From: Gammaproteobacteria bacterium
GTDB taxonomy: Bacteria; Pseudomonadota; Gammaproteobacteria; JAJFJF01
Direction of reading: 5' to 3'
Assembly: GCA_021774255.1 (NCBI GenBank)
Contig: JAJFJF010000010.1
Span: 3,947-67,946 of the forward strand
DNA length: 64,000 bases
Shown: positions 36,246 through 36,281 of the stretch, one piece after another
Layout of the letters: each line of letters begins with the position of its first letter
Position numbering within the stretch: the stretch's first letter is position 1
Made by a program: the position numbers and the translations under genes
The notes under the pieces: generated by a model
What the model was told of the DNA's origin: nothing
Seen by the model: only the letters and a program-made list of their open reading frames with translations
Database searches by the model: none

Positions 36246-36281
36246 CTATAGATATAGAGTAACACGAGCATGTAAATTTTT
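36246..36281. promoter_or_regulatory. Copy A of the shared effector-gene upstream motif CTATAGATATAGAGTAACACGAGCATGTAAATTTTT
   Basis: Lies 62 nt upstream of the LRR_cc gene start. In the gene direction it reads AAAAATTTACATGCTCGTGTTACTCTATATCTATAG, that is TTTACA-N16-TATCTA. Confidence 0.55.

Follow-up and report, generated by a model that had tools for sequence, protein, structure and literature searches.

The 64-kb window analyzed here, i.e., the whole stretch of DNA taken from contig JAJFJF010000010.1 of assembly GCA_021774255.1, spans the replication origin of a chromosome from an uncultured gammaproteobacterium, as indicated by gene content and GC skew. Its minus strand carries dnaA, dnaN, recF, and gyrB, its plus strand carries rnpA, yidC, mnmE, gidA, gidB, parA, and parB, and the cumulative GC skew turns at ~42-44 kb. 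The intergenic region between dnaA and rpmH/rnpA (42981-43397) falls at this minimum, or turn, of the skew and is likely oriC. Scattered among the housekeeping genes of the window are genes for eukaryote-like and orphan proteins, namely, an LRR, an ankyrin, a GATA zinc-finger, a cysteine-rich "A20-like", and a second internalin-like LRR protein, in addition to several further open reading frames (ORFs) without a Pfam match. The subject of this study is a 35-nt sequence, here referred to as the box, that recurs at least eight times between the genes of the window, nearly always shortly 5' of eukaryote-like or orphan genes and of one candidate regulatory RNA; from this placement, it most probably represents a lineage-specific promoter or a control site of host-interaction genes. 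All evidence on the box comes from this one window of one genome, and the extent of the regulon is inferred from the window.

A family of eight intergenic copies

The box constitutes a non-chance family of eight copies, i.e., six strong copies and two that correspond to the 3' half, and every copy lies within the non-coding 14.6% of the window (Table 1). When each strong copy was scored against a matrix of the remaining five (leave-one-out), scores of 27.7-43.3 bits were obtained, vs. 15-19 bits for the best score in shuffled windows. With a 3'-half matrix, the chance expectation per window is 0.03 matches for half copy c7 and 0.11 matches for half copy c8. A degenerate 34-mer derived from copies A and B matches A and B alone, with 0 matches expected in 100 dinucleotide shuffles. 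Taken by itself, the 12-mer core is not enriched in the window when ≤3 mismatches are allowed (41 matches vs. 44.6 expected), and the signal therefore resides in the full 35-nt box.

Table 1. Box copies, the units associated with them, and two reference genes (positions in nt of the window; scores of the six strong copies are leave-one-out scores)
Feature	Position	Strand	Score (bits)	Sequence	Remarks
Copy c1	5936-5974	+	36.9	AAAAACATACACCCGGATGTTACACCATATATAAGTGAA	first of tandem pair
Copy c2	6038-6076	+	43.3		102 nt downstream of c1
Copy c3	24192-24230	+	27.7	TAAAAATTACCCGCCCTTGTTACTCCATATATGATGAAG	
Copy D (c4)	55349-55387	+	29.0	AAAAACATGCACGCTAGCGTTACTCTCTATATAGATAGA	
Copy B (c5)	17559-17595	-	34.4	AAAAACTTACCTGCTCGTGTTACCCTATCTATCTAGA	5' of 691-aa ORFan (ATG 17488)
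Copy A (c6)	36245-36281	-	38.8	AAAAATTTACATGCTCGTGTTACTCTATATCTATAGA	
Half copy c7	55271-55305	-	17.7	TGTGGCGTACACAGTGATGTTACGCCATATACAGA	5' of ankyrin gene, in gene orientation
Half copy c8	5900-5934	-	16.4	...GGATGTTACACTATTCATATAGATAGG	5' of GATA gene
Claimed copy of A20-like gene	7072-7104	-	-3.7		not supported as family member
Candidate non-coding RNA	6077-6530	+			~450 nt; downstream of c1/c2
GATA-type zinc-finger gene	5049-5876	-			forward target of c8; reverse target of c1/c2
691-aa ORFan	15413-17488	-			ankyrin-like TALHLL/TPLHLL motifs; forward target of copy B
235-aa orphan membrane protein	24253-24960	+			hydrophobic segments, acidic tail; forward target of c3
gyrB	32179-34596	-			
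LRR protein gene	35096-36184	-			362 aa; forward target of copy A
dnaA	41448-42980	-			
Ankyrin-repeat protein gene	54323-55237	-			forward target of c7; reverse target of copy D

A preliminary description of the DNA had reported A and B as nearly identical copies, D as a divergent and inverted one, and degenerate versions upstream of the GATA and A20-like genes. Copies A and B were recovered in place and have 31 of 37 bases in common, including the exact 12-mer TGCTCGTGTTAC; copy D is present as well and is inverted with respect to the ankyrin gene. The copies at 5936, 6038, and 24192, to which D is tied by a repeat finder, had been missed. The degenerate version next to the GATA gene proved to be a 3'-half copy (c8), located at 5900-5934. 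The version assigned to the A20-like gene could not be upheld: the quoted sequence is found at 7072-7097, not at 7085-7118, it has TTTACATG and CTATCTA in common with copy A, it lacks GTTAC and the A-tract, and its score equals background.

The consensus of the box is AAAAAyWTRCAyGCnnnyGTTACnCYATnTaT, and an ungapped alignment of the six strong copies reads aAAAAc.TaCa.gC...tGTTAC.C.aTaTaTa, with AAAA, T8, C10, C14, GTTAC, C25, T28, T30, and T32 as invariant columns. Of the "spacer" that had been described as conserved, GCTCGTG is confined to A and B, and only GTTAC and C14 are conserved family-wide. Most pairs of copies are identical at 21-26 of 35 positions (60-74%), and two pairs are nearly identical. 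Since invariant columns alternate with free ones and most pairs share only 21-26 of 35 positions, the pattern points to constraint, not to recent copying. The tandem copies c1 and c2 show 92% identity over 39 nt and have unrelated flanks, i.e., sharp edges, and B and A are the best-matched pair after this tandem. Half copy c7 retains TACA, GTTAC, and CCATAT and is devoid of the A-tract.

Single-strand DNA folds of the box reach only -0.1 to -3.3 kcal/mol with unremarkable z-scores; no stable hairpin is formed, which implies that the box acts as duplex DNA. Alignment of the copies revealed neither inverted ends nor target duplications, the flanks are unrelated, and no transposable element was seen adjoining any copy. 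The notion of a miniature inverted-repeat transposable element (MITE), which the preliminary description had named as the alternative that would refute its proposal, thus found no support, as the hairpin and inverted ends are missing, the flanks are unrelated, and seven of the eight copies face a transcription unit. In a broader sense, the box could be a non-regulatory dispersed repeat, e.g., the relic of a mobile promoter, a recombination site at cassette edges, or a tiny MITE or repetitive extragenic palindromic (REP) element, that is carried along with foreign genes and at present controls nothing. The genes linked to the box have the look of acquired ones, e.g., an insertion comprising the genes for the LRR protein, an AAA_14/DUF4143 ATPase, and a 269-aa orphan as well as ~1 kb of non-coding DNA separates recF from gyrB (34597-39002), while dnaA-dnaN-recF-gyrB is uninterrupted at the compared loci of the nearest relatives; moreover, the 691-aa protein is an ORFan, two copy pairs are near-identical, and copy D has no forward target. 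The box also resembles putative mobile promoters in being one short, sharp-edged sequence 5' of non-homologous genes, but it differs from them in that its copies are mostly 60-74% identical, its columns appear constrained, and no transposable element adjoins them. The lack of terminal inverted repeats, target duplications, and hairpin potential, the alternation of invariant and free columns instead of uniform decay, the non-random orientation and distance to gene starts, and the absence of similar sequences from plasmids, phages, viral contigs, 185,579 species genomes, and metagenomes all speak against a dispersed repeat, which is considered decidedly unlikely.

The searches beyond the window returned matches at the level of chance. 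Degenerate patterns of the box gave 26 singletons in unrelated taxa among the 185,579 species genomes, 10 singletons with a GC content of 0.30-0.62 in the JGI metagenomes, and 17 matches in IMG/VR, of which 16 trace back to a single homologous locus shared by related phages. When two copies were compared with plasmid and phage sequences by BLAST, only matches with E ~2 were obtained, no box above background was present in the origin regions of the nearest relatives (three loci, 46 kb), and Rfam assigned no family to the box or the regions downstream of it except for a sub-threshold match to CrcZ. Apart from one identical protein, the matches of DnaA, Aquicella among them, stop at ≤68% identity (~67% for the best), so that there is no close sequenced relative to compare.

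Units faced by the box

Read with the A-tract first, seven of the eight copies face a transcription unit, namely, five ORFs and one non-coding unit (c1/c2). The distance from T32 to the start codon is 30 nt for the 235-aa orphan (c3, ATG 24253), 76 nt for the 691-aa protein (B), 66 nt for the LRR protein (A), 37-58 nt for the ankyrin protein (c7), and 27 nt for the GATA finger protein (c8, ATG 5876); counted from the 3' end of copy A, the ATG of the LRR gene (36184) is 61 nt away. The described placement before eukaryotic-like genes is supported in that the box lies 27-76 nt before the starts of these five eukaryote-like or orphan genes. The box lies 5' of five of the 16 eukaryote-like/orphan genes and of none of the 40 conserved genes (Fisher p = 0.0011), where the division into eukaryote-like/orphan and housekeeping genes is our own classification. 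Of the earlier proposal of a dedicated regulator site controlling an effector regulon, the part concerning a non-chance intergenic element with a biased placement (5/16 vs. 0/40) holds; a regulator was not found in the window, nor did gene annotation of the 64 kb reveal a secretion-system gene.

Housekeeping promoters of the window possess a canonical -10, e.g., TGGTATAAT for gyrB, GGTATAAT for DUF1499, and TATAAT for nagZ, and the box is absent there, which sets the box apart as a distinct class. A difference is also seen at the translational level: most housekeeping genes of the window carry Shine-Dalgarno sites of the AGGAG/AAGGA type, whereas the five box-linked ORFs, with starts at 24253, 17488, 36184, 55216, and 5876, have no recognizable site of this kind; of the six ORFs inspected, only the A20-like gene has one. 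For the ankyrin gene, the ATG at 55216, followed by the signal-like MKKISFVFM, is the likely start. The GATA-type zinc finger was recognized by Pfam (E = 7e-12) and is followed by a long P/Q/A-rich low-complexity tail, as is typical of eukaryotic transcription factors. For the 691-aa protein, a homologue search over 5.8 billion clustered proteins returned the self match only. Within the LRR gene (35273-35939), four diverged tandem units with a 150-nt period are 60-72% identical, which reflects repeat expansion. Copy c3 sits in the divergent intergenic region between the 235-aa orphan and a VOC/glyoxalase-like gene, c1 is arranged back to back with half copy c8, and copy D points toward the 3' end of nagZ, with its final bases overlapping the nagZ stop.

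The non-coding unit downstream of c1/c2 is A-rich and contains no ORF of >44 aa on the plus strand. It holds 16 of the 95 AANAANAA tracts on the plus strand of the window, at the highest density in the window, and these tracts are predicted to lie in large loops (fold of 6077-6530, z -3.5). A strong intrinsic terminator, consisting of a hairpin at 6465-6522 and seven consecutive U (ΔG -28.4 kcal/mol, z -4.5), makes a unit of promoter, RNA, and terminator plausible on the basis of the modeled fold. RNA folds of the short stretches after c1, c2, and copy D are unremarkable. The predicted RNA resembles the CrcZ-type sponge small RNAs (sRNAs) in that it is ~400-450 nt long, non-coding, rich in AAnAAnAA tracts in predicted loops, and closed by a strong terminator, and it is regarded as a candidate Hfq-sponge-like sRNA. 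CrcZ promoters depend on sigma-54 and CbrB; in contrast, no GG-N10-GC is found at c1/c2, and the match of 6077-6530 to CrcZ (RF01675) is far below threshold (16.7 bits, E = 0.035, vs. a threshold of 95).

Promoter tests and competing readings

Sigma-70 promoters have a -35 near TTGACA, in which TTG is the most conserved part, a spacer of 16-18 nt, and a -10 of the form TAnnnT with A-11 and T-7. On the forward strand, none of the copies passed a scan for this structure (≤2 mismatches in the -35, N16-18, TAnnnT), and the invariant bases at the would-be -35 are T8 and C10, not TTG. The reading as TTTACA-N16-TATCTA in the preliminary description hence does not describe the family: a forward TAnnnT has no fixed position, and a canonical -10-like hexamer occurs nowhere but on the opposite strand.

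The explanation that is preferred, although tentatively, is that the box is a compact, lineage-specific promoter module, read A-tract first, that may jointly control horizontally acquired eukaryote-like or orphan genes and the A-rich RNA. In such a module, the A-tract would serve as a proximal UP-like element, yWTRCA would provide a -35-like contact, and the GTTAC-n-C-Y-A-T-n-T block would be recognized either by an alternative sigma factor or by an activator taking the place of the normal fit to -10 and -35; the invariance of GTTAC at one fixed register would be the signature of a dedicated factor. The tandem c1/c2 would drive the ~450-nt RNA, whose exposed (AAN)n loops suggest sequestration of an Hfq-type protein, and this RNA would couple post-transcriptional control to the same signal as the box. 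The gap between core and start codon is only 27-37 nt in c3, c8, and c7 (the latter for the TTG start of the ORF list), too short to accommodate a separate promoter. With <31 nt in c3 and c8, the core promoter must lie inside the box, which favors a promoter over an upstream activator site.

Several observations weigh against this promoter module, in addition to the use of our own gene classes mentioned above. The forward TAnnnT is not only without a fixed position but absent from five of the eight copies at motif positions 24-45, and the factor that would replace the missing sigma-70 -10 is hypothetical. The opposite strand has TAnnnT at a fixed place in five of the six strong copies. Copy D has no forward target but is followed by a small hairpin with a T-run and then by the nagZ 3' end, a CATAAT near 6181 could independently start the non-coding unit instead of c1/c2, and the box is not conserved in the nearest relatives or in any public collection scanned.

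The opposite-strand hexamers raise the question of whether the box is an activator-dependent promoter that fires the other way, with the layout TATAT-rich / G-n-GTAAC / 9 nt / TAwrTT / TTT, in which a regulator site would take over the role of the -35 and keep a constant spacing to a canonical -10, as in Legionella effector promoters of the PmrA or LexR1 type, and the targets would be the GATA gene (c1/c2), the ankyrin gene (copy D), and the VOC gene (c3). The hexamers TATGTT, TATGTT, TAATTT, TAAGTT, and TAAATT (CATGTT in D) all occupy motif positions 9-4 at a spacing of exactly 9 nt to GTAAC, such that the -11 A and the -7 T coincide with invariant bases. In the reverse-strand sigma-70 scan, the TAnnnT is fixed and a -35 with ≤2 mismatches occurs in c5 and c6 only, which pass with TAGATA-N16-18-TAAGTT/TAAATT. 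This orientation would account for the "inversion" of copy D beside the ankyrin gene, and it fits the fixed-distance rule of Legionella effector promoters (PMC13555631). Furthermore, a terminator-like hairpin (GTGCGCA-CCTCT-TGCGC, then ATTTTT) is found on the plus strand at 36390-36416, between copy A (c6) and the AAA_14 gene and ~105 nt past c6 on its reverse side; this hairpin either ends a short reverse-side transcript of copy A or is the AAA_14 terminator read backwards. However, on their reverse side, c5 and c6 meet convergent genes (the 199-aa HExxH ORF and AAA_14/DUF4143, respectively) at their 3' ends only, and no ORF is available there, half copies c7 and c8 have no reverse -10 (TACGCC, GAAAAC) yet stand directly 5' of eukaryote-like genes in the forward direction, and any A-tract followed by TA automatically reads as TAnnTT on the complementary strand. 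Targets are available for four of the eight copies in the reverse reading vs. seven of the eight in the forward reading; because of this difference and the missing reverse -10 in c7 and c8, the forward reading is kept as the best one, and firing in the opposite direction is considered unlikely. The 199-aa ORF itself (17643-18242, minus strand) has no Pfam match and carries an HExxH motif (AAHEAMHKV), and it may encode a small metalloprotease-like effector.

Alternatively, the box may be an orientation-independent module that is bound by a lineage-specific DNA-binding protein and controls promoters on either or both sides, with a response regulator (via the TRC(A/C)...N8-9...GTTAC direct repeat) or a silencer/counter-silencer of foreign genes as candidate binders. 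Every copy has a gene start or the RNA unit on at least one side, and the side is inconsistent. The half-sites are similar to the TACA/GTTACA half-sites of the OmpR/RstA type; in c7, TACA...GTTAC persists although the A-tract is lost. In addition, c8/c1 and c7/D form inverted pairs of GTTAC-TATAT halves that flank the upstream regions of the GATA and ankyrin genes, and GGATGTTACAC occurs in both c8 and c1, where it makes up a perfect inverted repeat. The likeness to OmpR/RstA boxes (GTTACA; TACA-N6-TACA) thus consists of a direct repeat of a TACA-like element and GTTAC before an AT-rich stretch. Conversely, the repeat period of the box is 13 bp, as compared to 10 bp in those boxes and 10-11 bp for dimers of the OmpR/PhoB family, and a second turn-matched repeat is missing. 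An information content of ~40 bits over 35 nt exceeds that of a normal single regulator site, the spacings of the inverted pairs are unequal (38 vs. 80 nt), and the short gaps to the start codon in c3 and c8 require a core promoter within the box. Control by such a binding module, irrespective of orientation, accordingly appears improbable.

A more specific idea is that the GATA zinc-finger protein (5049-5876) was recruited as the bacterium's own regulator of the box. It is based on the fact that six of the ten TAGATAG heptamers of the window are at box edges and that the GATA finger is encoded beside c8. TAGATAG is a GATA-factor core (WGATAR). Five of the six heptamers are located at D, B, and c8, and one is at the unsupported A20-like site. 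A TAGATAG/TAGATAT extension is present on four copies, i.e., D, B, c8, and, on the other strand, A, and there is no GATA core in the other four (c1, c2, c3, and c7). This recruitment is regarded as highly improbable; if true, the TAGATAG at c8 would imply autoregulation of the GATA gene, and a domesticated eukaryotic transcription-factor fold would control a host-interaction regulon together with an Hfq-sponge-like RNA.

Relation to known systems and significance

The GTTAC-n-C-Y-A-T-n-T block recalls the -10 region of sigma-32 (RpoH) promoters, for which the consensus is CCCCATnT. C23-n-C25-Y-A-T-n-T30 is in register across the strong copies, with the second C free, and the corresponding blocks of the box are CACCATAT, CTCCATAT, CGCCATAT, and CCCTATCT. 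No copy, however, has a CTTGAA-like -35 located 12-15 nt upstream (≤2 mismatches in the -35, ≤1 in the -10), the GTTA that is invariant in the box is not needed by sigma-32, and the targets are not heat-shock genes. The copies gave no match to the promoters of sigma-54 (TGGCAC-N5-TTGC), sigma-28 (TAAA-N15-GCCGATAA), or sigma-E (GGAACTT-N15-17-TCnAA). Further roles were tried and rejected. The sequence GTTACnCTATA resembles the core GTGACACTATA of promoters for SP6-type single-subunit polymerases; here, the AT-rich part that such polymerases recognize upstream of the core is missing, the conserved region continues for another 18 nt in the upstream direction, and there is no likeness in phage collections. 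A TATA-type promoter of eukaryotes or giant viruses that arrived together with the genes was dismissed as a working model because c3 and c8 leave too little space between TATA and ATG and viral matches are lacking, and roles similar to parS, the DnaA box, KOPS, or Chi were dismissed as the box is non-palindromic and its copies ignore the direction of replication.

The preliminary description had likened the box to the PmrA boxes of Legionella and Coxiella. In terms of sequence, this does not hold: the PmrA element TTAA-N7-TTAA has no match on either strand when each of the eight copies is scanned together with 15 nt on both sides, the CpxR box GTAAA-N5-6-GWAAA has no match in any copy, and the GacA/LetA element TGTAAG-N6-CTTACA has a single weak match with 3 mismatches, in the flank of copy D only. 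As their defining repeats are absent, the box falls outside the PmrA, CpxR, and LexR1 families. In terms of logic, the analogy is sound. Elements of PmrA, CpxR, LexR1, and LciR are found 5' of many unrelated host-interaction genes in Legionella and Coxiella and are predictive of effectors, and in Legionella effector genes, the conserved element of the regulator keeps a constant distance to the -10 (PMC13555631). The box likewise recurs 5' of unrelated eukaryote-like genes and, by analogy, is functionally the same kind of element as those of PmrA, CpxR, and LexR1, i.e., a lineage-specific cis-element that would mark host-interaction genes. It differs from them in its unrelated sequence, in its conservation over the whole 35-nt promoter width, where the Legionella and Coxiella elements substitute for the -35 only, and in its repeat period of 13 bp.

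Besides the box, the window contains other repeats. GC-rich, REP-like palindromes (CCCTCTCCCC...GGGGAGAGGG) are found in intergenic positions at 232-256, 3939-3971, 4021-4054, 12954-12978, and 20268-20292, those at 3939-4054 being an inverted pair. A second palindromic family (GTAGGGGCAGCC...GGCTGCCC) has three copies (39315-39344, 45699-45728, and 58950-58979). A near-perfect palindrome of 22 nt, TAAAGTTATTAAWATAACTTAA, is present exactly twice, with 0 expected: once at 4974-4995, 53 nt 5' of rpe and just 3' of the GATA gene, and once at 34790-34811, ~190 nt 5' of gyrB and 3' of the LRR gene. This palindrome may act as an operator or as a 3' element.

The value of the box is limited until its genome-wide presence and its transcriptional activity are shown. 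Its unusual traits are the conservation over the full width of a promoter and the apparent link to a sponge-like RNA, and the occurrence of the same box at the A-rich RNA suggests that linked genes are under coupled transcriptional and post-transcriptional control. Since the eukaryote-like genes are orphans, the host-interaction repertoire of this bacterium is not identifiable by homology. PmrA and CpxR boxes have served to find effectors in Legionella. In a comparable manner, a 35-nt box of ~40 bits would permit the regulon to be listed across the genome from sequence only, and it could serve as bait for the regulator or sigma factor involved. In a lineage that lacks relatives, the box could thus help to predict the regulon and its effectors.

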